Assembly: GCA_964342815.1 (NCBI GenBank)
Contig: CAYFHS010000009.1
Location: 1 to 64,000 of the forward strand
DNA from: an uncultured archaeon
Lineage (GTDB): Archaea; Thermoplasmatota; Penumbrarchaeia; JASLWR01
Direction: 5' to 3'
DNA: 64,000 nt
The notes under the pieces are model-generated. The model searched no databases. It was not told the DNA's origin and saw nothing but the letters and a program-made list of their open reading frames with translations. Positions 7,228 through 17,768 of the stretch are shown piece after piece. The translations under genes and the position numbers were made by a program. Each line of letters begins with the position of its first letter. The stretch's first letter is position 1.

Positions 7228-7606
7228 AATTATACCTCAATTTTCAACTCCCATACGTTTTGGAATTGGGAAAAAAACATCGTGCTATGATTATATATAG
7301 ATAACGGATGTTGTTGGAAAGTTAAAGAATCAAAAGAAGGTTATACAATACATGTAATTTCCTTATAATCCCCCCCCAACGGTTCATCAAATTAATTTTC
7401 GAGAGACGTAAAGTTCATATTTTGAACTGAATAGGCCCTGGAATTTAATTTACGGAACATCAGACCTAATTGAATAATAAATCGATATTATATAACCAAT
7501 TTATCTTTATCAATAATATAGAAAACAGGTTTTTCGTGATGGCGCTATTCGGCAAAATACAAATTCCACCGTTAGGGTAAAATAGCAACATGCCAATCAT
7601 CAGCCG

Positions 7607-8260
7607 ATGCTCTCCAAGCCTGTGCAGGATATGATTAATTGGACTAGAGCCAAAGCTAAGGAGAGGTTTCCCCATGCTACAATTTATTTAAAATATAAAA
7701 TATACAAATATTTCACCATTGGCCGTTACAGTACAGCCATAGTTGGAAGGAAAAAAGTAAAAAAATATGTGAGGAAGACCTCGGAACTAGATTTTATAGA
7801 GCAGTACGGCTACAAACCAACCCGAACAAACCTGCTGCGGGATCATGAATTCTATAAGCTTCGCGGTGTACCTGTACCAAAGATTATAAAAATTAAGGGA
7901 ACCGAGAAGAGGCCGATATTCTATTTTCAGAGAACAGTCGATCTCGATCAGGGAGATACGGAAAATATGTTCTGCGGCATGGTTGACATATCCCACTCGG
8001 TTTTAAAGAAAGGGTACCACTTCGACATAATGCCAAAAAACTTCGGTTTGATAGACAGCAGGCTGACCTTTCGCGATACTTTTGGAATAAGAAAACGGAA
8101 GGGCTTAAGAGAAGAATTGGATATTATGATAAAAAAGATTGTAAAGTTCGACCGACTTGTTTTCAACATATCAAGCGAAAAGAAGAGAAGGTTCGAAAGA
8201 ATCGTGAAGAGTTATGTCAATAAAAAATATAAAAAAATGCTTGAGGATGAGCCTGTGTGA
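7607..8260 (+). CDS. Minimal protein-kinase-like fold protein (RIO/Bud32/Kdo-kinase-like), very basic
   Basis: Motifs in kinase order: IGRYSTAIV (Gly-loop-like), VKKY (Lys), GVPVPKII, YHFDIMPKNFG (HxDxxxxN), RDTFG (DFG-like). Confidence 0.65.
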   Translation: MLSKPVQDMINWTRAKAKERFPHATIYLKYKIYKYFTIGRYSTAIVGRKKVKKYVRKTSELDFIEQYGYKPTRTNLLRDHEFYKLRGVPVPKIIKIKGTEKRPIFYFQRTVDLDQGDTENMFCGMVDISHSVLKKGYHFDIMPKNFGLIDSRLTFRDTFGIRKRKGLREELDIMIKKIVKFDRLVFNISSEKKRRFERIVKSYVNKKYKKMLEDEPV

Positions 8261-8317
8261 ATACAGCTTTGTGTGGGATACCTCCTACTGAACTTAGCGA
8301 ATAATTCGGGTGAATAT

Positions 8318-9577
8318 ATGTACCTTACTAAAGAAGAGGAGAAAAACCTTTCCGGTGATAAGGGCGAAACCGTTGCGGAAGCCATTGATTACATGGTAAA
8401 GTTCGGGGAAGCCTTCGATGCAGAACGGCTTCTGGATATAGTATACGTCCATTATCCCGCCGAAATGGCCATATATGAAGGGAGTGTAGAAGACCTTTTA
8501 GAATACGCAGAAAAAAGACCCAGGGTATCGGTTCCAACGACTTCGTCAACATTATGCATGGACCTGGACCAGTGGAAGGAAATGGGAGTACCGGAGGAAC
8601 TCGCAATTAAACAGTATGAGGTGGTAGAGCCCCACAAAGAAATGGGTGTCTTGGGTACCTATACCTGCACACCGTATCTTTTGGGTTTCTTACCACCCAA
8701 AAACTCATACATTGCATCGGTTGAATCGTCGGCGGTTATCTATTACAATTCAATGCTCGGTGCCTGGACGAATCGGGGAGGTATATTTACAAAATTCTCC
8801 GCGGTTTGCGGTAAATACCCCGAGATGGGTTACATGCTCCGGGAGAATAGAAAGGGCACGCATTTGTTTAAAATGAATATTGAGAAAGAAAAACTTCGGA
8901 CATTCCTCGACTACAATCTCCTAGGTATACATATTGGCTCCATTGTGGGCAGCGAAATTCCCGTTCTGGATCGGATTCTTACAAAAGAACAGGAACATAT
9001 CATAGGTATGGGTGCAACTCTCGCCACTTCCGGGTCCGTTTCCCTTTATCATATCCCGGGAGTAACAGCCGAGGCAAAGAGCTTGGAGGACGCTTTTCAC
9101 GGCGATTATCCCGGGGAAACCTTTACGGTTGACATCTCCGACCTTGAAGATGCAAGAGAACAGGTGAGTACCATTGACGGCGGAGTGGTTGATTTTGTTC
9201 TACTTGGATGCCCTCATTATAACCTCGAGCAATTGAGAGAAGTGGCATTAATGCTCAAGGGAAAAAAGATCGCAAAGGGGGTGAAGTTATGGGTATGCAC
9301 GAACCGTATGACAAAGCATGCTGCCCAATGGCAGGGTTATGCACAGTTGATTGAGGCTGCTGGAGGCAAGGTTGTTTGTGATTCATGCCCCGTGGAATCC
9401 CACATGAGAACGAGCACCTGTAAGAGCTACGGACTGGCGACACCCTATATCGAGGTAATGGCTACAGAGTCGGGAAAGATGGCGAGGTACGTAAAAGACC
9501 TAATTGGCTGCGAAACTTTATTAATCGATCGAAAGAACTGTATCAAGGCCGCTCTGAACGGCAGATGGGGTGATTGA
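8318..9577 (+). CDS. Aconitase X catalytic (large) subunit, DUF521 family
   Basis: MYLTKEEE N-terminus, TCTPY, ESSAVIYYNSMLGAWTNR, LGCPH, CDSCPV (three cluster cysteines). Start moved from ORF-track 8273 to ATG 8318, which follows a GGGTGA RBS. Confidence 0.9.
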   Translation: MYLTKEEEKNLSGDKGETVAEAIDYMVKFGEAFDAERLLDIVYVHYPAEMAIYEGSVEDLLEYAEKRPRVSVPTTSSTLCMDLDQWKEMGVPEELAIKQYEVVEPHKEMGVLGTYTCTPYLLGFLPPKNSYIASVESSAVIYYNSMLGAWTNRGGIFTKFSAVCGKYPEMGYMLRENRKGTHLFKMNIEKEKLRTFLDYNLLGIHIGSIVGSEIPVLDRILTKEQEHIIGMGATLATSGSVSLYHIPGVTAEAKSLEDAFHGDYPGETFTVDISDLEDAREQVSTIDGGVVDFVLLGCPHYNLEQLREVALMLKGKKIAKGVKLWVCTNRMTKHAAQWQGYAQLIEAAGGKVVCDSCPVESHMRTSTCKSYGLATPYIEVMATESGKMARYVKDLIGCETLLIDRKNCIKAALNGRWGD

Positions 9578-10007
9578 AATTACCGATGAGGATTTTACGG
9601 AACGGATAAGATGCAAGGGAGTGGTCAAGGGTGTTGCCGAGGGTAAAGCCCTGGTAATGAAGAAGTCGTTTGCCTTCATGGGGGACGTTGACATGGCCAC
9701 CTCGGAGATAATAGCAAAAGAGCACGAGCATTATGGTAGAAAAATCGCCGGAAAGATTATGATCTATCCCGAGACGAAAGGTTCTTCCGGTGGTTGTGTA
9801 GTCCTGATCTCACTGGCCAAACTTGGCTTGCAACCCGCAGCCATAATAAACTTAAAGATGGCTGATTACAACCTTGTGGAAGGTGCAATACTTGCTGGAA
9901 TACCACTTGGATGTCTACCTGAGGATGACCTCACTAAGATGATACAGACCGGGGATATGGTAATGCTCGATACAGAAAACGGTTGGATCCAGCGTATGGC
10001 GAAATAA
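9570..10007 (+). CDS. Aconitase X swivel (small) subunit, DUF126 family
   Basis: GVAEGKALV, FMGDVD, IAGKIMIYPETKGSSGG, PAAII, GAILAGIP. Overlaps the large-subunit stop by 8 nt. Confidence 0.9.
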   Translation: MIEITDEDFTERIRCKGVVKGVAEGKALVMKKSFAFMGDVDMATSEIIAKEHEHYGRKIAGKIMIYPETKGSSGGCVVLISLAKLGLQPAAIINLKMADYNLVEGAILAGIPLGCLPEDDLTKMIQTGDMVMLDTENGWIQRMAK

Positions 10008-10032
10008 TAAACAATTTAACCTCGGTGAGGCT

Positions 10033-13000
10033 ATGAAAGACCGTTATTATCTGGGCGTCGACCTCGGTTCGGTCAGTCTTGACGCGGTCATTCTGGACAG
10101 GCAAGGTGAGATCAAATGGTGGAAGTACCATAGAATACACGGCTGGCCGAAGAGAGCTATTTATATTCTGTCGAGAGAGATACGAGACGAGTTTATTATA
10201 CCAAATAATATTGAAAAATTCCATGGATCTCTGGCAACAGGTAGCGGAAAGGAGATAGTTAAAAAGGTTCTGGGTTTGGAAGTTATAAATGAAATAATTG
10301 CTCACGGGGTTGCTGCTGCCAGGACGGCGGGAAGCAGAACGTCAGTTATAGAGATAGGGGGTCAGGATTCCAAGTTCATCAATGCCGACAAGAACGGGCC
10401 TTATGATTATTCAATGAATGAACTGTGCGCAGCTGGAACGGGAGCCTTCTTGGATGTACAGGCTGAACGCTTGGGTCTGAGTATCGAGGTATTTTCCGAA
10501 CTGGCTTCGAGCGCAAAAAATGTCCCTTCGGTGGCAGGACGCTGCAGTGTGTTTGCGAAATCAGATCTAATTCACCTTCAACAGAGAGGAATACCCAATG
10601 GAGAGATCGTTGCCGGTCTCTGCTATGCATTAGCCCGAAACTATCTCGCAACCATGATCAAGGGTAGAGAAGTGATCAAACCCGTTGTGTTTCAGGGCGG
10701 GGTGGCACTGAACGATGGGGTTATCCGCGCTTTCAAGGACTTGCTGAAACTCGAAGACAAGGAGATCATCCGTCCTAAGCTGCCGCATATGATGGGAGCA
10801 GTTGGTGCGGCACTCATCTCAATGAACGAACCGCAAAAAGACAATACGGCAAAACAGATTTCCAACCTTGCAAAGAAAGCACAGGATAAAGCAGCAAAAG
10901 GGATTTCTCTCGGCGGCTGGGAGATGCAAACCGCCAAACCAGATCAGCCCGCAGGTCTTGAGTCGTTCGAGCTTAACAGGGACAATAAAGGTTCCCAAGA
11001 ATCCCTGTTTCTTGGTATTGACATCGGTTCAGTGAGTACAGGGGCCATGCTGATAAATCCTCAAGGTGGAATTGAAGCTCGTGCATATACATTTACGGCT
11101 GGGAGACCCCTCAGCGCTGTGAAAAAAGTTTTTGAATTTCTAAAAGGTAATTTCAAACGGCAGCAGATCAAGGCAGTGGGAACTACCGGTTCCGGAAGAA
11201 AACTCGTGGGATACTTAATCGGGGCGGACGTCATCGTGGATGAGATAACATCCCAGGCTGTTGGTGCATATGATATCATGAAAAACCTCGATACTGTGAT
11301 AGAGATAGGGGGGCAGGATGCAAAATTCATTACCCTTGACAGCGACGGTCTCGTCAAGGATTTCGAAATGAATAAGATATGTTCAGCGGGGACCGGTTCT
11401 TTCATCCAGGAACAGGCGGTGCGTTTGAGCGTGGACCTGAAAAATGAATTTGCGGACCTCGCCCTTTCGGCGGAATCACCCCTCCCACTTACAAGCCGGT
11501 GTACCGTATTCATGGAATCCGATCTCGTTCACCACATTCAGCAGAACACACGACTCCCGGACCTTCTGATGGGCGTCGCGAACGCGGTAGTGGAGAATTA
11601 TCTCGACAGGGTGGCACTTGGACGAAAACCCGGTAAAAATGTACTTATTCAAGGAGGAGTGGCAAAGAATGCTGCTGTGGTGAAAGCTTTCAAAGCTCGT
11701 TTGTCGGATTCCAAAATAGAAGTTCATCCGGTTCCTGAGCTTTCCGGTGCCCTGGGAATCGCGAAACTTGCTGCTGAGGAAGCCGAAAGAAAAAAAATGA
11801 AAAGCTCCTTTACTGGATTTTCGTTAGAAAGCGACTACAGTTCAAGCACTTTCAACTGCCTAAATTGCGAGAACCAGTGCGAGGTTAACACCTTCGATAC
11901 ACTTTCGGGAAGGTTTTATTTTGGCGATCTCTGCGGAAGGTATGGCGAATCGAGCTTTTCTACTGATTCCGGCAAAGACCATACGCAGCAGAGGGAAATG
12001 CTGCTACGGGAAATGGTGGAAAGTGCAACAGGTAGAAGACGCATGGGTATACCGGAAGCCCTTTTGTTTCGCGAATATTTTCCGTTTTGGTTTTCTTTCT
12101 TCAGTAAACTTGGGATAAAGATTGTTACATCCGGTCGATCCACATCCGTCAAGCTCAACGCCGGATTGGCAAGACTGCCTGCGGAGACCTGTTTGCCCAT
12201 CAAACTGCTGTTCGGCCATGTCACCGAACTCTGTAATAAAAAAATTAAAACGATTTTTTTACCATCCTTTAGACGCATAGAAAATAATTTCCCCTGCCCA
12301 TATGTCCAGCACGCAGCAGCCATGATATCATCTGTATTCAGGGATTGTGAGATATTATCGTTTTCGCTTTTACCCGATATAAAGGGACGGAACCTAAAGC
12401 TGCTGCTGGATGAAATTGCGGGAGAGTTTGCGGTCCGGAGAGATCAGGTTGAAGCAGCATATAAACAAGCGCAAAAAGTATATTCCAGATACAGAAAAGT
12501 TACTGAGATCAAACCGGGTAAAAGCCGGTCGGTTGCAGTAATAATTGGTAAACCGTACAACGCCGCAGATCGATTCGTAAATCTCGCACTGTCATCCAAA
12601 CTGGCGCGAGCGGGATTCGAGGTGGTTCTGGCAGACCAGCTCTCCCGGGTTGATGAAGTCCCCCTTCCCGAGAGGTACGCAAAAATTGATTGGTTTTTCA
12701 ACCGGAAAATGCTGGCAAGCGCCATGGCAGTAAAAAAACACGAAAATTATTTTCCCGTTGTAGTGACAAATTTTGGCTGCGGCCCCGACGCATTTACTCT
12801 CCCGCTTCTGGACGAGATCGCGGATGGTAAACCATCGCTGTTTCTTGAGGTGGATGAGCATCGTGCGGATGCGGGTCTCGACACGCGAATAGAAGCTTTT
12901 TCGGAATGCGTTAAGCGCTGGAGGGAGCTGAATACCCGCAGGGATCTCTCGTGGCAGGGGAGAAAACGGCACGTACCAATATCGAAGGGGGACCCCGTGA

Positions 13001-14283
13001 AAGGCAAAAAAACATATATCATACCACAATTTTCCGATCATGCCTTCGCCTTTGCCGGTGCGTTCCGAGGAGCAGGAGGGGAGGCAAGGGTTCTTCCTTT
13101 ACCAGACCGCGAAGTGCTGGAGTTGGGGGTCGAGCTTTCCGGCGGCCGGGAATGTCATCCGTTCAAGCTCATAGCAGGAGACATCATGCGCCTGGCAAGA
13201 ACGGGCGGGCTGCCCTGGGGGGCGGTCTATTTATTCCCGGTGCTGAGCGGTTCTTCATGTCTGATATCACAATACGTGCCCACCATCGAGCGATATCTAT
13301 CGGATATCGGCCGTTCAGACGTTACCGTGATCGGGACCAGCACCCCGGCTCTCGTGGAACATTTCGGGAGATGGTTCATTCTGAATCTGGGCAGAGGTAT
13401 CGCCGGCATCGAATACATGCTCAGGTTGAGGTACGAACTGCGGCCATATGAGGTGATAAAGGGTGAAGTTGACGCTGCGTACCACAGGGCATTGGATATC
13501 ATCGTGGAGAATTTGGCTCAGGGTCGGGCCCACGACGGTATAATCGATGCCGTTTTCGAAATGGAGAAGGTGAAGACCCGTAACAAGGGAACCAAACCGG
13601 CCATCGGTGTGGCGGGTGACGTTTATACCAGAGTAAATCCTGCTGCCAATGGGGGTCTGTTTGAAATACTGGAGGAACTGGGATGCGAAGTTTGGCTCGC
13701 CCCTACCATTCTTGACGTAGCCCTGTCCGGGACGGAGTTATCGGTTAAAAGACACTGGCGTCAGAGAGAACTGCTGGAAATGACATCTTCCTGGGCCAAG
13801 GGCGTTGTTGGGAAAATGGAATTGTGGCGGGTCGAAAAGCATTTCAAAGGTCTTCTCCGCAACTTCGGCGAGCCGGATATGGAGACCATCGAGAAATATG
13901 TGGAGGACCTGCTTCCCGGGGAGCCGGAACTGCTTGTAATGCTGAACGTTGCAAAACATGTTGATTTTGCTGAGAAGGGGGTTGACGGTATTCTAAATGT
14001 TTTCTGTCTAAACTGCATGGTTGGCACTTCAACGGCTGCTGTATTTCCCAGTATCAGGGAAAAGACAGGTGAGATCCCCATGATGTCCCTGGTGTTCGAC
14101 GGGCTTGGAACCACCCATGCACGAAATCGAACCGAAGCCTTCGCTCACAGGGTAAAACGCTATCACAAGGAGCGTATCGAGAAAAAAAACAGGAAAACCG
14201 GCGCAGCAGAAAAAGGACTGGTGGACCGATTCATGGAAACATTGGAGGGCTTGAGAAGTAAATATGCTCTGGGAGATGAGTGA
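10033..14283 (+). CDS. Double HgdC/BadF-type ATPase activator + DUF2229 + HgdAB-like reductase fusion (plasmalogen synthase PlsA-PlsR / glycerol ester reductase Ger architecture)
   Basis: Two ASKHA modules: LGVDLGSVS...TGSG...EIGGQDSK...MNELCAAGTG...GRCSVFA...FQGGVA, and LGIDIGSVS...TGSG...EIGGQDAK...MNKICSAGTG...SRCTVFM...IQGGVA. Then CLNCENQC/GDLC, ETCLPIK, CPYVQ, GCGPDAF, EVDEH, RECHPF, AGDVYTRVNP, FCLNCM. Confidence 0.9.
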   Translation: MKDRYYLGVDLGSVSLDAVILDRQGEIKWWKYHRIHGWPKRAIYILSREIRDEFIIPNNIEKFHGSLATGSGKEIVKKVLGLEVINEIIAHGVAAARTAGSRTSVIEIGGQDSKFINADKNGPYDYSMNELCAAGTGAFLDVQAERLGLSIEVFSELASSAKNVPSVAGRCSVFAKSDLIHLQQRGIPNGEIVAGLCYALARNYLATMIKGREVIKPVVFQGGVALNDGVIRAFKDLLKLEDKEIIRPKLPHMMGAVGAALISMNEPQKDNTAKQISNLAKKAQDKAAKGISLGGWEMQTAKPDQPAGLESFELNRDNKGSQESLFLGIDIGSVSTGAMLINPQGGIEARAYTFTAGRPLSAVKKVFEFLKGNFKRQQIKAVGTTGSGRKLVGYLIGADVIVDEITSQAVGAYDIMKNLDTVIEIGGQDAKFITLDSDGLVKDFEMNKICSAGTGSFIQEQAVRLSVDLKNEFADLALSAESPLPLTSRCTVFMESDLVHHIQQNTRLPDLLMGVANAVVENYLDRVALGRKPGKNVLIQGGVAKNAAVVKAFKARLSDSKIEVHPVPELSGALGIAKLAAEEAERKKMKSSFTGFSLESDYSSSTFNCLNCENQCEVNTFDTLSGRFYFGDLCGRYGESSFSTDSGKDHTQQREMLLREMVESATGRRRMGIPEALLFREYFPFWFSFFSKLGIKIVTSGRSTSVKLNAGLARLPAETCLPIKLLFGHVTELCNKKIKTIFLPSFRRIENNFPCPYVQHAAAMISSVFRDCEILSFSLLPDIKGRNLKLLLDEIAGEFAVRRDQVEAAYKQAQKVYSRYRKVTEIKPGKSRSVAVIIGKPYNAADRFVNLALSSKLARAGFEVVLADQLSRVDEVPLPERYAKIDWFFNRKMLASAMAVKKHENYFPVVVTNFGCGPDAFTLPLLDEIADGKPSLFLEVDEHRADAGLDTRIEAFSECVKRWRELNTRRDLSWQGRKRHVPISKGDPVKGKKTYIIPQFSDHAFAFAGAFRGAGGEARVLPLPDREVLELGVELSGGRECHPFKLIAGDIMRLARTGGLPWGAVYLFPVLSGSSCLISQYVPTIERYLSDIGRSDVTVIGTSTPALVEHFGRWFILNLGRGIAGIEYMLRLRYELRPYEVIKGEVDAAYHRALDIIVENLAQGRAHDGIIDAVFEMEKVKTRNKGTKPAIGVAGDVYTRVNPAANGGLFEILEELGCEVWLAPTILDVALSGTELSVKRHWRQRELLEMTSSWAKGVVGKMELWRVEKHFKGLLRNFGEPDMETIEKYVEDLLPGEPELLVMLNVAKHVDFAEKGVDGILNVFCLNCMVGTSTAAVFPSIREKTGEIPMMSLVFDGLGTTHARNRTEAFAHRVKRYHKERIEKKNRKTGAAEKGLVDRFMETLEGLRSKYALGDE

Positions 14284-15043
14284 AAAGCGGGGTGGACAAT
14301 TGGATAACGAAAAAAAACGATTCTGGGAAGTGGATGCAGCGCGAGGCGTGGCCATAATAATGATGATCATCTTTCATCTCATTTATGATCTTGATTTCTT
14401 TAATACTATCGATTTTACTCTCAATAAAGGTTTCTGGTTTGTTTTCCGTAGGTCCATTGCAATTTCATTCCTTTTACTGGTAGGCATCTCCATGAATTTG
14501 AGCTATTATCAGAAGGAAAACATTTTTTTCAAATATCTTCTGAGGGGATTGAAGATTTTCGGTTTTGGTCTCTGCATAACCCTGGTGACCTATATCTTTC
14601 TTTCAAATGCCTACGTCAGATTCGGAATACTGCATCTAATTGGCCTCTCTATAATTATTACATATTTTTTACTGGATTTCTACGTATTAAACCTTTTCCT
14701 GGGTCTATTTGCAATTACTATTGGATGTATAATTGGGAATATCCACGTTAACATTCCTTGGCTTTTCTGGATGGGGCTTCGTGATGGCCACTATCCTGAT
14801 ATCGATTATTTCCCATTATTTCCATGGATCGGAGTAATATTCATAGGTTTATTCCTTGGAAAATTCCTTTACCGACAGAAAAAACGGAAATTCGTTATGA
14901 TTCGAAATTGTCCCAAGTTTCTCGATCCGCTGAGTTTTCTTGGAAAACATTCACTGTTCATCTATCTGATCCATCAGCCTATTTTGATCATTATATTAGC
15001 TCTTCTTGGAATTGTTAATCCGGATATTCTATGGCTATTCTAA
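14264..15043 (+). CDS. DUF1624 / heparan-alpha-glucosaminide N-acetyltransferase-like membrane protein
   Basis: RFWEVDAARGVAIIMMIIFHLIYDL, FGILHLIG, DYFPLFPW, LGKHSLFIYLIHQP; multiple TM segments. True start may be ATG 14276. Confidence 0.85.
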   Translation: MLWEMSEKRGGQLDNEKKRFWEVDAARGVAIIMMIIFHLIYDLDFFNTIDFTLNKGFWFVFRRSIAISFLLLVGISMNLSYYQKENIFFKYLLRGLKIFGFGLCITLVTYIFLSNAYVRFGILHLIGLSIIITYFLLDFYVLNLFLGLFAITIGCIIGNIHVNIPWLFWMGLRDGHYPDIDYFPLFPWIGVIFIGLFLGKFLYRQKKRKFVMIRNCPKFLDPLSFLGKHSLFIYLIHQPILIIILALLGIVNPDILWLF

Positions 15044-15143
15044 ATCCGCTGGAATATTGTATTATGATAACACTGTTATGTGTCCCCTATGTCCATTCCG
15101 CAAAAAACTATAATAAAGTTTAAATTAGATAATGTCGATGTAC

Positions 15144-15160
15144 TTTACATCAGGTGTAAA
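15144..15160. promoter_or_regulatory. Palindromic operator TTTACA-N5-TGTAAA upstream of the ABC/DUF2318 operon
   Basis: tttaca tcagg tgtaaa followed by CA-ATG (15163). TATA-like tttaaatt at about 15118. The same motif occurs at the blaI-like gene. Confidence 0.75.
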
Positions 15161-15162
15161 CA

Positions 15163-16419
15163 ATGTTCATAACCATACTGGGAAAATCCTTCTCGAGGAG
15201 AAAGGGGAAAATGGCAATCGCTATTATTGCGGTTATCATGGGTGCTGCTATCCCTTCGGCAATGTTCACTGTTTCCCTGGACATTTCCGAAAAAGTCAGC
15301 CATGAATTCCGAAAGTACGGAGCAAACCTTATATTGGTCCCAAAATCGGATACTATAGAAGTCGGTTTTCCCGGAGTGGAATTCGGAGCTGTGACCGAGC
15401 AGAATATGATTAATGAAAGTGACCTATGGAAGATCAAGAGCATTTCCTGGAGAAATAACATACTTGGTTTTGCACCCTCCTTGTATCAGGTAGTGAAATC
15501 TGGAGAAGGGGCCAATGAACAGCGAATGGTTCTCGTTGGAACCTATTTTAATAAAGAGGTCGATATCCTCAAACCATACTCCTCCGATGATAAAAAAACA
15601 TTCAAAACAGGGATTAAATCCATCAGCCCCTGGTGGGAAATTAAAGGGGATTGGATAGAAGATCCCAACGATAATATCGGAAGCATGGTAGGTGTCAATG
15701 TCGCTGAAAAATTGGGTCTTGCTCTGGGCGACGCCTTCACTATCAGATACAGTCAGTTACCCGACGATACCCAAAACGAAACAGAATACGAACTGAAGGT
15801 ATTGGGGATCATAAATACCGATGGGTATGAAGATAACCAGATCATAGTAAATTTACAGGTTGCTCAAAATTTGACCAATCGCCCCAACGAAGTACATACT
15901 GTTCAGGTATCTGCTCTCTGTAATGCCTGTCCCGTTGATGTTTTTGCCGGGGAAATAGAGGAAAAGATCCCATATATTGATGGAAAAACCGTAAAACAGC
16001 TCGTCAGTGCAGAGATGAGCGTGTTGGGCAAGGTCGAGGATATGATGTTACTTGTCACCATCGTTGCCCTTCTCGCTTCGGCCCTTGGTGTTAGTACCAC
16101 AATGACCACATCGGTGATAGAAAGACAGAAAGAGATCGGATTGATGAAAAGTATAGGAGCGGAGAACAAAAGAATTGCATCGTTGTTCCTGACCGAAGCA
16201 GGTTTGGTAGGGCTCGTAGGTGGAATACTTGGTTATTTGATCGGACTCGTGCTTGCTCAGATCATCGGCATGAGTGTGTTCGATTCCTCTGTTTCGCCCC
16301 GCCTGATTGTTCTTCCCATAGTGTTGGGAATATCCATTGGAATGACCCTTTTAGCATCTTCCCTCCCGGTTAGAAGAGCAATTAAGATAGAGCCTGTGAT
16401 AGTATTGAGGGGTGAATAA
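15163..16419 (+). CDS. ABC transporter permease, FtsX/MacB family
   Basis: N-terminal TM, large extracytoplasmic domain (YGANLILVP), C-terminal FtsX region VIERQKEIGLMKSIGA plus three TMs. Confidence 0.9.
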   Translation: MFITILGKSFSRRKGKMAIAIIAVIMGAAIPSAMFTVSLDISEKVSHEFRKYGANLILVPKSDTIEVGFPGVEFGAVTEQNMINESDLWKIKSISWRNNILGFAPSLYQVVKSGEGANEQRMVLVGTYFNKEVDILKPYSSDDKKTFKTGIKSISPWWEIKGDWIEDPNDNIGSMVGVNVAEKLGLALGDAFTIRYSQLPDDTQNETEYELKVLGIINTDGYEDNQIIVNLQVAQNLTNRPNEVHTVQVSALCNACPVDVFAGEIEEKIPYIDGKTVKQLVSAEMSVLGKVEDMMLLVTIVALLASALGVSTTMTTSVIERQKEIGLMKSIGAENKRIASLFLTEAGLVGLVGGILGYLIGLVLAQIIGMSVFDSSVSPRLIVLPIVLGISIGMTLLASSLPVRRAIKIEPVIVLRGE

Positions 16420-17091
16420 ATGGAGAGCGGGATCATAGTCACAAAAAATCTCAGTAAAATATACGGAAGCACGAAAGCTCTTCAGAAGGCAAGCATAACT
16501 ATAAAACAAGGTGATTGGACGAGCATAATCGGGCCCTCGGGATCGGGGAAGACCACACTATTGAACATGATCAGCTGCCTTGATACTGCAACTTCGGGAG
16601 AGGTATTCGTGAATGGAACCAATATTTCGAAATTGAATCAGGTAAAACTCACACGATTCAGAAGAGATAATATCGGTCTCATTTTTCAACAATATCATTT
16701 GATACCCTATTTAACAGCTCTTGAAAACGTAATGATGGCACAGTACTACCACAGCATCGTGGTTGAAAAAGAAGCCCGTGAAGCCCTGGAAAATGTTGGA
16801 ATGGGTCACAGGTTGCACCACGTACCATCCCATCTGTCCGGCGGCGAGCAACAGAGGGTATGCATAGCAAGAGCCTTGATCAACGATCCAAAGATACTTC
16901 TGGCGGATGAACCCACGGGAAACCTTGACCAGAAGAACGGAAAAATCGTACTTGATCTCATCAAGAGATTGAATGACGAGGGACATACGGTGGTCCTCGT
17001 TACTCATAATCCGGATATCGCAAAGAAAGGGAATCGGATCATCGAATTGATTGACGGAAAGGTTTCGCGAGTTAATGTTATAAATTCATAG
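16420..17091 (+). CDS. ABC transporter ATP-binding protein, LolD/MacB type
   Basis: [31 protein letters not shown]. Confidence 0.95.
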
Positions 17092-17108
17092 TCAGAGTGT
17101 GATAATAT

Positions 17109-17768
17109 ATGCCACAGAAAAAGCAACAAAAGTTGGATAGATGCCCGGAATGCGGTTGCGCGATCAAATCGAAAAACCTAGAGAAGCACATCCTAATAGT
17201 ACATAAAATCGGATCACAGGGTCAAGGTGGCGAGGTTAGACCGAGTAAAGCTGAAGAGCGAAAAAAACTGGAAATGGAACAAAAAAAGATGAAAATGAAC
17301 ATCGTTTTCTCGGTAATACTGATCAGCCTTGTAGTGGTCGTATTATATTATTGGTGGGGACCGGGAAGCGACGATAATAATCCCTATACCTATGAGGATT
17401 CAGAAGAATCACCAACGGATCCTGATTCCGGAGATGTAAGGATCCCAATAGCAGATATAACAACTAATGCAAAGTTCTACACTTATAATTCCAATGGTGT
17501 AACTATACGATATTTTGTATTGAAAAGCTCGGATGGCGTGGTACGAGCCGCATTTGATACGTGTGACGTATGTTATGAGGCAAAAAAAGGTTACCGTCAA
17601 GAGGGGGATGATATGGTGTGTAATAACTGCGACCAGAGGTTTCCCTCGGAAAAGATCAACGTTGAGAAGGGCGGGTGTAATCCTGCGCCATTAACAAGGA
17701 CGGTTGAGGGCGACGAACTTGTCATCAAAACCAGCGATATAGAAGCGGGGAGTTGGTATTTCGAATAA
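17109..17768 (+). CDS. DUF2318 (FtrD-like Fe-S) membrane protein with N-terminal C2H2-like Zn finger
   Basis: CPECG...LEKHILIVH, one TM, then RAAFDTCDVC...CNNC...GGCNPAPL. Confidence 0.85.
   Translation: MPQKKQQKLDRCPECGCAIKSKNLEKHILIVHKIGSQGQGGEVRPSKAEERKKLEMEQKKMKMNIVFSVILISLVVVVLYYWWGPGSDDNNPYTYEDSEESPTDPDSGDVRIPIADITTNAKFYTYNSNGVTIRYFVLKSSDGVVRAAFDTCDVCYEAKKGYRQEGDDMVCNNCDQRFPSEKINVEKGGCNPAPLTRTVEGDELVIKTSDIEAGSWYFE

Follow-up and report, generated by a model that had tools for sequence, protein, structure and literature searches.

Our analysis of a 64,000-nucleotide stretch of contig CAYFHS010000009.1 (the window), from an uncultured archaeon of the phylum Thermoplasmatota, centred on the gene for a 1416-amino acid (aa) fusion enzyme, P0001, which is assigned to the superfamily of the plasmalogen synthase PlsA/PlsR and of Ger, a reductase of glycerol esters. 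On balance, we favour the reading that P0001 is an intact enzyme of bacterial derivation from a third clade of that superfamily (clade III), that it would carry out radical chemistry, and that it forms an operon with a two-subunit aconitase X (AcnX) that is not of the phosphomevalonate dehydratase type and probably not a hydroxyproline dehydratase, the genes on either side of these three lying outside the unit. The original prediction had placed the enzyme, as a PlsA/Ger-type lipid enzyme, in an operon of five genes.

Pfam and NCBIfam profiles identified two BcrAD_BadFG/HgdC-type ATPase domains and DUF2229 in P0001, and structural comparison extended the assignment to a catalytic half of two modules. 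The features of the enzyme, by position in the window, are as follows.

10051..10830, + strand: first HgdC/BcrAD-type ATPase domain, residues 7-266, with the cluster residues Cys132 and Cys171 (TIGR02261/TIGR03192 stretches)
11011..11763, + strand: second HgdC/BcrAD-type ATPase domain, residues 327-577, with Cys450 and Cys490 (PF01869, TIGR00241)
11845..12921, + strand: first catalytic module, residues 605-963, resembling the double-cubane cluster protein (DCCP), HadC and BzdO (VIA-align, Foldseek, PF09989)
11857..11934, + strand: CxxCxxxC...C motif, Cys609/612/616/634, invariant across the alignment rows of Ger, PlsA, Ger2 and clade III
12040-12639, + strand: DUF2229, inside the first catalytic module (PF09989, E 4.5e-50)
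12997..14229, + strand: second, C-terminal catalytic module, approximately residues 989-1399, the PlsR counterpart (structure model)

The ATPase domains carry the invariant DxGS, GGQD and Cys motifs, the CxxCxxxC...C motif is a probable extra Fe-S site, and the C-terminal module has invariant Cys1041, 1076 and 1328. With 42 homologues as input, residues 600-1416 were modelled confidently (predicted local distance difference test score, pLDDT, 87.4; predicted template modelling score, pTM, 0.86); this model was matched by Foldseek to HadBC, BzdNO/MbdON and DCCP with a probability of 1.0, and residues 605-963 gave VIA-align Z scores of 13.6-14.2 to 7yzm, 8s02_B and 3o3n_B. The assignment of the C-terminal half is weaker than that of the first catalytic module. 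The last 550 residues had no Pfam match, the C-terminal module alone had no VIA-align match, and a sequence comparison of residues 600-1416 with the PDB returned nothing meaningful; PF06050 was detected in this module of relatives, and the Foldseek matches, obtained with the model as a whole, included both the alpha and beta chains of HadBC and Bzd/Mbd. Fourteen cysteines are invariant across Ger, PlsA, Ger2 and clade III and all 14 are present in P0001, so the enzyme machinery looks intact. Domains, fold and cysteines thus agree with the two-activator, DUF2229 and reductase layout of the PlsA/PlsR-Ger superfamily that was noted at the outset, and P0001 is, judged by these features, an intact member predicted to be a self-activating, ATP-dependent Fe-S radical enzyme. 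The ATPase and first catalytic module folds also match the systems HgdC/HadI with HgdAB/HadBC, BzdNOPQ/MbdONPQ and DCCP/DCCP-R (Z of approximately 14). Unlike these systems, whose substrates differ, P0001 holds everything in one chain and its catalytic half has no detectable sequence similarity to theirs.

The phylogenetic position of P0001 was inferred against anchors of each known type. D. alkenivorans Ger and Ger2 were identified as SHJ90043.1 and SHK01260.1 by exact-sequence look-up and are the proteins tested in PMC13159169 and PMC11150832. The T. maritima Ger anchor is the sole DUF2229 protein on its single-contig genome. PlsA-type anchors came from tblastn of a plasmid collection and represent Listeria monocytogenes, the plsA/R orthologue of which appears to be active anaerobically (PMC9702350), Collinsella aerofaciens, where a TetR gene lies upstream as described for facultative anaerobes, and Fusobacterium animalis, which has the two-gene form. 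By BLASTP, P0001 shares 26 % identity with T. maritima Ger and 28 % with D. alkenivorans Ger, which are 48 % identical to each other, 27 % with Listeria PlsA (25-27 % over the Listeria, Collinsella and Fusobacterium orthologues) and 30 % with Ger2, the highest value among the anchors. Its best database matches comprised a small group at 44-58 % identity, below which thousands of bacterial proteins level off at no more than 33-39 %. In a scan of genome contigs with an alignment as query, the matches listed were all from metagenome-assembled genomes (MAGs), with identities of 31-37 %, and none was a named reference.

Unrooted trees generated with FastTree (68 rows) and IQ-TREE (40 rows, LG+G4) both resolved four clades, namely PlsA (support 100), Ger (100), Ger2 as a separate long branch, and clade III (96-99), all support values being Shimodaira–Hasegawa (SH)-like or SH-aLRT. 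Clade III contains the window's archaeal group together with every bacterial MAG protein fetched, and that archaeal group (97) is nested within a bacterial clade (100) inside it; no characterised member of clade III was identified. Approximately unbiased (AU) tests rejected a union of the window's group with Ger (log-likelihood difference 327, p 3.4e-5) and with PlsA (difference 263, p 4e-53). The superfamily, as the alignments resolve it, comprises at least four deep clades at 25-30 % mutual identity, with tested or candidate enzymes placed in three, and P0001 is assigned by both trees to the third, large, mainly bacterial clade and not to that of PlsA or Ger. The proposed identity with PlsA or Ger did not, therefore, survive the phylogeny, which put P0001 outside the validated Ger clade and also outside the PlsA clade, the anchors of which are proxies.

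The likeness to the known enzymes is nevertheless considerable. Ger (T. maritima Tmari_0479 and D. alkenivorans SHJ90043; PMC13159169) has the same BB, DUF2229 and HgdB-like parts in a single chain of approximately 1400 aa with the 14 cysteines, and ATP-driven injection of a low-potential electron is presumably common to both; unlike P0001, Ger genes are not linked to AcnX. PlsA/PlsR is known from C. perfringens (CPE1194-1195) and, as a single chain, from E. faecalis, L. cremoris and B. longum (PMC12838417, PMC9702350), and it shares with P0001 its domain order and cysteines, the length of P0001 covering both the two-gene and the fused forms. D. alkenivorans Ger2 (SHK01260; PMC11150832), the activity of which is itself only partly defined, has the same layout. 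Among the Thermotogae, the superfamily was seen not to be uniform, as L160 (G504) and L162 (G488) carry a PlsA-clade rather than a Ger-clade protein, and others have a long-branch type of approximately 1500 aa (G450) or split forms of approximately 340 aa.

The second component of our finding is the company that the enzyme keeps. The five genes of the locus are listed below, with the evidence for each.

7607..8260, + strand: near-orphan open reading frame (ORF) P0002, 217 aa (ORF listing of the window)
8273..9577, + strand: AcnX large subunit (AcnX-L), P0003 (PF04412, E 3e-112)
9570..10007, + strand: AcnX small (swivel) subunit (AcnX-S), P0004 (PF01989, E 2e-22)
10033..14283, + strand: the fusion enzyme P0001, 1416 aa, clade III of the PlsA/Ger superfamily (domains, fold, tree)
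14264..15043, + strand: DUF1624/HGSNAT-type membrane acyltransferase-like protein, P0005 (PF07786, E 3e-71; also PF01757)

These coordinates and the common orientation, as originally proposed, are in exact agreement with the ORF listing, and the labels of the two AcnX subunits, the double-activator/DUF2229 fusion and DUF1624 agree with Pfam and NCBIfam matches, that of P0005 to PF07786 being full-length (profile positions 1-222 of 222). The true start of AcnX-L is probably the ATG at 8318, because its homologues and TkAcnX align from residue 16; this start also reproduces the 57-bp gap after P0002 that had been reported earlier. The remaining junctions are an 8-bp overlap between the AcnX subunits, a 25-bp gap between AcnX-S and P0001, and a 20-bp overlap between P0001 and P0005, so that all five genes are tightly packed in the same orientation.

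In a sample of 401 genomes from the phylum, the clade of the window enzyme was confined to a single family (f1), being present in three of its four genomes (G000, the host of the window, G002 and G003), and one further metagenomic contig (P0006) brings the archaeal members to four. In all four, AcnX-L and AcnX-S lie directly upstream of the enzyme, with junctions that vary between an overlap of 4 bp and a gap of 40 bp, even though the enzymes are just 52-58 % identical. The congener G001 has a locus (L113; G001:C76:38368-41886) syntenic with window positions 7555-15557, in which the orphan ORF (82 %) is followed by residues 13-189 of AcnX-L, the last 107 residues of the enzyme and DUF1624 (77 %). 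A single deletion of approximately 5.3 kb has thus taken the AcnX-enzyme core and spared its flanks. The proposed five-gene operon was therefore borne out for AcnX-L, AcnX-S and the enzyme, which are conserved in all four archaeal members, and not for P0002 and DUF1624; as the flanking genes vary and survive the deletion of the core, the conserved unit is of three genes rather than five. Of 85 bacterial loci, none has an AcnX within approximately 8 kb. The closest bacterial relatives of the two components differ, being in Planctomycetota, Ignavibacteria and Bacteroidota for AcnX and in Desulfobacterota for the enzyme, which suggests that the genes were brought together as an operon within the archaeal line. 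From the tight junctions kept despite this divergence, the different bacterial affinities and the joint loss, we infer a putative functional coupling of AcnX and the enzyme.

A simpler account is that the adjacency has no functional meaning, two acquired bacterial genes having come to lie side by side and been kept there by inheritance. We regard this as rather unlikely, although several observations favour it. The four archaeal loci represent one family-level lineage and amount to one evolutionary event, and clade III genes of bacteria share no neighbour, the commonest being seen at 10 of 83 loci. Another archaeon and bacteria have this AcnX type without the enzyme, and the Desulfobacterales that carry clade III lack it: a P0003-like AcnX was present in none of 301 Desulfobacterales genomes, at least 17 of which carry clade III, and this counts against the operon reading that we prefer. 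Against mere inheritance stands the retention of gene order and tight junctions at this level of enzyme divergence, through three replacements of the downstream gene. Moreover, the nearest bacterial relatives differ, so that the genes probably did not arrive on one transferred fragment, and both were lost together in G001.

Clade III genes were also observed in other settings. In Planctomycetota, including Ca. Scalindua, the gene lies between leuC and leuD (L025:6658-12763, L027:1474-7620, L035:6650-12789, L065 and L070), with gaps of 65-75 bp and 3-38 bp and an arrangement that persists down to 52 % enzyme identity. Here, for a second time, clade III is linked to a heterodimer of the aconitase superfamily. 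The flanking genes exceed the isopropylmalate dehydratase equivalog cut-offs and are the sole LeuC-type genes there. We considered this arrangement as independent proof of coupling to an aconitase-type enzyme and dropped it, the genes being the only housekeeping LeuC/LeuD of these genomes. In Bacteroidales (L045, L050, L060, L079, L087 and others), a gene with a 4Fe-4S ferredoxin domain lies approximately 100 bp upstream on the same strand (five loci) and a PdxB-like 2-hydroxyacid dehydrogenase gene is convergent downstream (six loci). Oxaloacetate decarboxylase beta follows the gene at four Syntrophaceae loci, and a radical SAM gene precedes it at four loci in Desulfobacterota.

The AcnX of the operon appears to be distinct from the characterised kinds. 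G000 carries two AcnX pairs, the window copy and a copy on contig C16, the large subunits of which are 29 % identical, and the C16 copy is the closer to TkAcnX (E 6e-71, against 1e-59 for the window copy). An alignment of P0003 to 7cnr_A by HMMER indicated that it keeps the three cluster cysteines, Glu129-Ser130-Ser131, Lys361 and Tyr365 (TkAcnX numbering), and P0004 aligns to AF0055 and TK1248 with its KGS(S/T) motif retained as KGSS. The mevalonate-5-phosphate site of TkAcnX, in contrast, comprises Gly48-Val49-Ser50, Asn53 and Asn79 (PMC8184944), and in the same alignment P0003 has A47-G48 deleted and the changes V49P, S50A, N53A and N79S. The original prediction had suggested a phosphomevalonate dehydratase and with it a link to isoprenoid synthesis; since P0003 lacks the residues that bind the phosphate of mevalonate-5-phosphate, that link does not apply to the window copy. 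The C16 copy retains all phosphate-site residues but one, with Gly-Val-Ser and Asn79 kept, and is the candidate for the phosphomevalonate dehydratase of G000, in which a UbiD-family gene is also present, as fits the archaeal mevalonate pathway.

With regard to hydroxyproline dehydratases, P0003 scored 212 against NF051439 (cut-off 700), and AtAcnX Asp203, which binds the pyrrolidine with Ile206, Thr72 and Trp35, corresponds to Tk Ala47 in the stretch deleted from P0003, a correspondence seen via TkAcnX only. The window AcnX is of type II; judged by its residues, it is not a phosphomevalonate dehydratase and is probably not a hydroxyproline dehydratase either. Archaeal AcnX of type IIb (A. pernix; T. 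kodakarensis 7CNR/7CNS; PMC8184944, PMC10040528) likewise has two subunits, the three cluster cysteines, Glu-Ser-Ser, Lys and Tyr, and shares the catalytic serine of the small subunit; unlike it, the window copy is without the phosphate-binding loop, Asn53 and Asn79. P0003 is 76-80 % identical to the enzyme-linked AcnX of relatives, with 62-71 % for the small subunits, and 55-60 % identical to many bacterial two-subunit AcnX, and these bacterial relatives appear by sequence to match the uncharacterised types IIc-IIf of PMC8184944. The AcnX pair was found without the enzyme in bacterial relatives and in another archaeon (64 % identity), and at two of three enzyme-free bacterial loci an X-Pro dipeptidyl peptidase gene adjoins it.

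The genes flanking the core are P0002 and DUF1624. P0002 had been called kinase-like; what speaks for this label is an HxDxxPxN-like motif and weak Atlas neighbours. Neither Pfam nor NCBIfam gave a match to it, even at E 10, which leaves the label unconfirmed. Just two clusters out of 1.84 billion representatives are related to it, and the closest of the named Atlas clusters, T7 kinase and YrbL, score 0.93, a lead only. No homologue of P0002 or DUF1624 was found beside the enzyme in the other archaeal loci searchable by tblastn, and the gene downstream of the enzyme in relatives is HlyIII twice and Na_Ca_ex once, DUF1624 occurring in the window only. Both genes had been put forward as partners of the enzyme; they are not conserved with it, they were kept in G001 after the core was lost, and they are outside the conserved unit, DUF1624 being a genus-specific neighbour. 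Immediately downstream, on the same strand (window 15163-17768), are genes for an MacB/FtsX-type ABC permease, its ATPase and an FtrD-like membrane iron-sulfur protein.

The nearest relatives of the enzyme outside the four archaeal members lie on bacterial contigs that also encode GGDEF proteins, TonB receptors, two-component systems and PilZ, and the named members among them are Desulfobacterota. Because the archaeal group is nested in a bacterial clade, transfer from bacteria to archaea is the simplest reading, the direction being inferred from nesting in an unrooted tree, and the enzyme appears from its sequence to have been acquired from anaerobic bacteria by the ancestor of one Thermoplasmatota family. 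If the contig were a mis-binned bacterial fragment, none of this would have any bearing on archaea. The enzyme and AcnX are both of bacterial type, and ten further window ORFs that were scanned include none with an archaea-only marker, as such a fragment would have it. The locus recurs, however, in three other assemblies of the same family, where syntenic loci adjoin the genes for archaeosine TGT-PUA and family B DNA polymerase (PolB), and the congener G001 is syntenic with 80 % DNA identity, which makes mis-binning highly improbable. The host genome (G000; 4.35 Mb, 116 contigs, 89 % complete) encodes ribosomal protein S8e, RIO1, KH/Krr1, MptE and TBP on other contigs, and the archaeal host assumed at the outset is thereby upheld by these markers and by the neighbours of the syntenic loci.

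The same genome holds two further members of the superfamily. A Ger-clade paralogue of 1460 aa on contig C22 (L098:6616-10998, - strand) matches the experimentally validated D. alkenivorans Ger (SHJ90043) from end to end at 53 % identity and T. maritima Ger at 45 %, is the sister of the former in both trees, and has as convergent neighbours a glycerate-kinase-like gene (DUF4147/MOFRL) and a 2-hydroxyacid dehydrogenase gene; on this evidence it is the actual candidate for conversion of ester to ether lipids in G000. Similar open frames (1462-1509 aa) occur in approximately 7 of 31 genomes of the class. A PlsA-clade paralogue of 1428 aa on contig C19 (L097:7904-12190, + strand) shares 37-38 % identity with the PlsA orthologues from Listeria, Collinsella and Fusobacterium, and the trees place it within the PlsA clade (95-99). 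Frames of the C19 type are the strongest DUF2229 match in approximately 19 of the 31 genomes, and a PlsA-like gene therefore seems common in this Thermoplasmatota class. Three of the four superfamily clades, all but Ger2, are thus found in one Thermoplasmatota genome.

The proposed search of the genome for acyltransferases and glycerol-3-phosphate (G3P) dehydrogenase gave a mixed result. Two PlsC-type acyltransferase genes (G000:C4:123597-123968 and G000:C29:48571-48942) were detected with a family profile that matched only the bacterial ones among the control genomes, and a ketosynthase-domain megasynthase frame of 3220 aa was present at G000:C41:23357-27520. In this 89 % complete genome, PlsY was not found and no NAD-dependent G3P dehydrogenase (GpsA) scored above the cut-off. 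By gene content, G000 has a partial bacterial-style acyl-lipid toolkit in an archaeon.

These findings bear on the alternative that P0001 is itself a plasmalogen synthase or glycerol ester reductase making vinyl or alkyl ethers, with AcnX, the kinase-like gene and DUF1624 in the same lipid pathway. The four-part architecture and all of the Fe-S cysteines are common to PlsA, Ger and Ger2, and all tested members of the superfamily use glycerolipid esters (PMC13159169, PMC11150832, PMC12838417). Five Planctomycetota genomes, a Ca. Scalindua MAG among them, furthermore have no superfamily member other than clade III, and ether lipids have been reported from Planctomycetota (PMC11868695); the acyltransferases and the megasynthase of G000 point the same way, as does the membrane protein downstream of the enzyme in all four archaeal loci (HlyIII twice, DUF1624 and Na_Ca_ex). 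Nonetheless, we consider this alternative doubtful. P0001 lies outside the two lipid-enzyme clades, both of which are already represented in G000 by the paralogues on C22 and C19, the adjacent AcnX is a soluble dehydratase of small acids that lacks the mevalonate-phosphate site, neither the kinase-like gene nor DUF1624 is conserved with the enzyme and both outlast its deletion, and the toolkit is without PlsY and a GpsA above the cut-off. The idea that the window gene crosses the lipid divide is weakened accordingly.

In the reading that we prefer, a clade III enzyme coupled to AcnX, the chemistry would follow that of the homologous systems. Homology with HgdC/HgdAB, BCR, DCCP and PlsA/Ger is the basis for proposing electron injection and ketyl chemistry. 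The tandem HgdC-like ATPase domains would hold a bridging [4Fe-4S] cluster and would pass a low-potential electron, driven by ATP, to the HgdAB/BCR/DCCP-like catalytic half, which would reduce or dehydrate a carbonyl, probably that of an ester, in a ketyl-type reaction. The AcnX pair would take water off a 3-hydroxy-carboxylate, or add it to a 2-enoate, in the same pathway. A glycerolipid-type ester, with Ger/PlsA-like chemistry at a different position or on a different lipid, is a serious candidate for the substrate, if short of an even chance; a soluble hydroxy-acid derivative is also a real candidate, given slightly less weight, and something else would account for the rest. That clade III is not a membrane-lipid ester reductase at all, and that with AcnX it forms, in this archaeal family, a new two-enzyme route of Fe-S dehydration and then ATP-driven radical reduction or dehydration of a soluble, hydroxy-acid-derived substrate, is a tentative proposal to which we give well under even weight. 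Of the phosphorylate-dehydrate-reduce-acylate pathway suggested originally, the dehydration and radical reduction survive, while the phosphorylation and acylation steps have no support.

Several considerations weigh against this interpretation. Three of the four deep clades hold glycerolipid-ester enzymes, as demonstrated by expression for PlsA and Ger, although Ger2 is only designated a potential reductase, and by parsimony with them clade III may act on glycerolipid esters too, in which case the link to AcnX could be only regulatory. Aconitase-type enzymes bind free carboxylates and ketyl chemistry needs an ester or thioester, so an esterifying step would be required between the two enzymes. 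The PlsA anchors, moreover, are orthologues of assayed enzymes rather than assayed proteins, and the genome of the Thermotoga Ger anchor is one that we take to be that of T. maritima MSB8.

Archaeal Ger homologues are not in themselves new, having been published for Methanosarcinales, Methanomicrobiales, DPANN and Asgard (PMC13159169). It has been stated that PlsA and Ger cannot yet be distinguished by sequence (PMC11868695, PMC13274423), and it seems to be new that a large third clade stands cleanly apart from both the validated Ger pair and the PlsA orthologues. The presence of three of the four clades in one Thermoplasmatota genome and the operon of AcnX with clade III seem to be new as well. 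No paper describing such an operon was found, in literature searches not designed for it. Published thresholds for a Ger homologue are E 1e-50 with 30 % coverage (PMC13159169) or E 1e-30 with 30 % identity (PMC13274423), and P0001 passes the former yet is as distant from Ger as PlsA is.

This matters because metagenomic counts of Ger homologues, made with permissive thresholds, are used to trace bacterial ether lipids and the branched glycerol dialkyl glycerol tetraether (brGDGT) palaeoclimate proxies. If clade III is not a lipid reductase, the Ger homologues that E-value thresholds pick out in metagenomes of Planctomycetota, Desulfobacterota, Acidobacteriota, Nitrospirota and Bacteroidota would for the most part be another enzyme, and predictions of the producers of bacterial ether lipids and brGDGT would need revision. 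For the lipid divide in this archaeon, it is the Ger-clade and PlsA-clade paralogues on contigs C22 and C19 that are relevant, and not the gene in the window. Clade III and this AcnX subclass, wired together in one archaeal family, offer a concrete gene pair from which the function of either may be learned.

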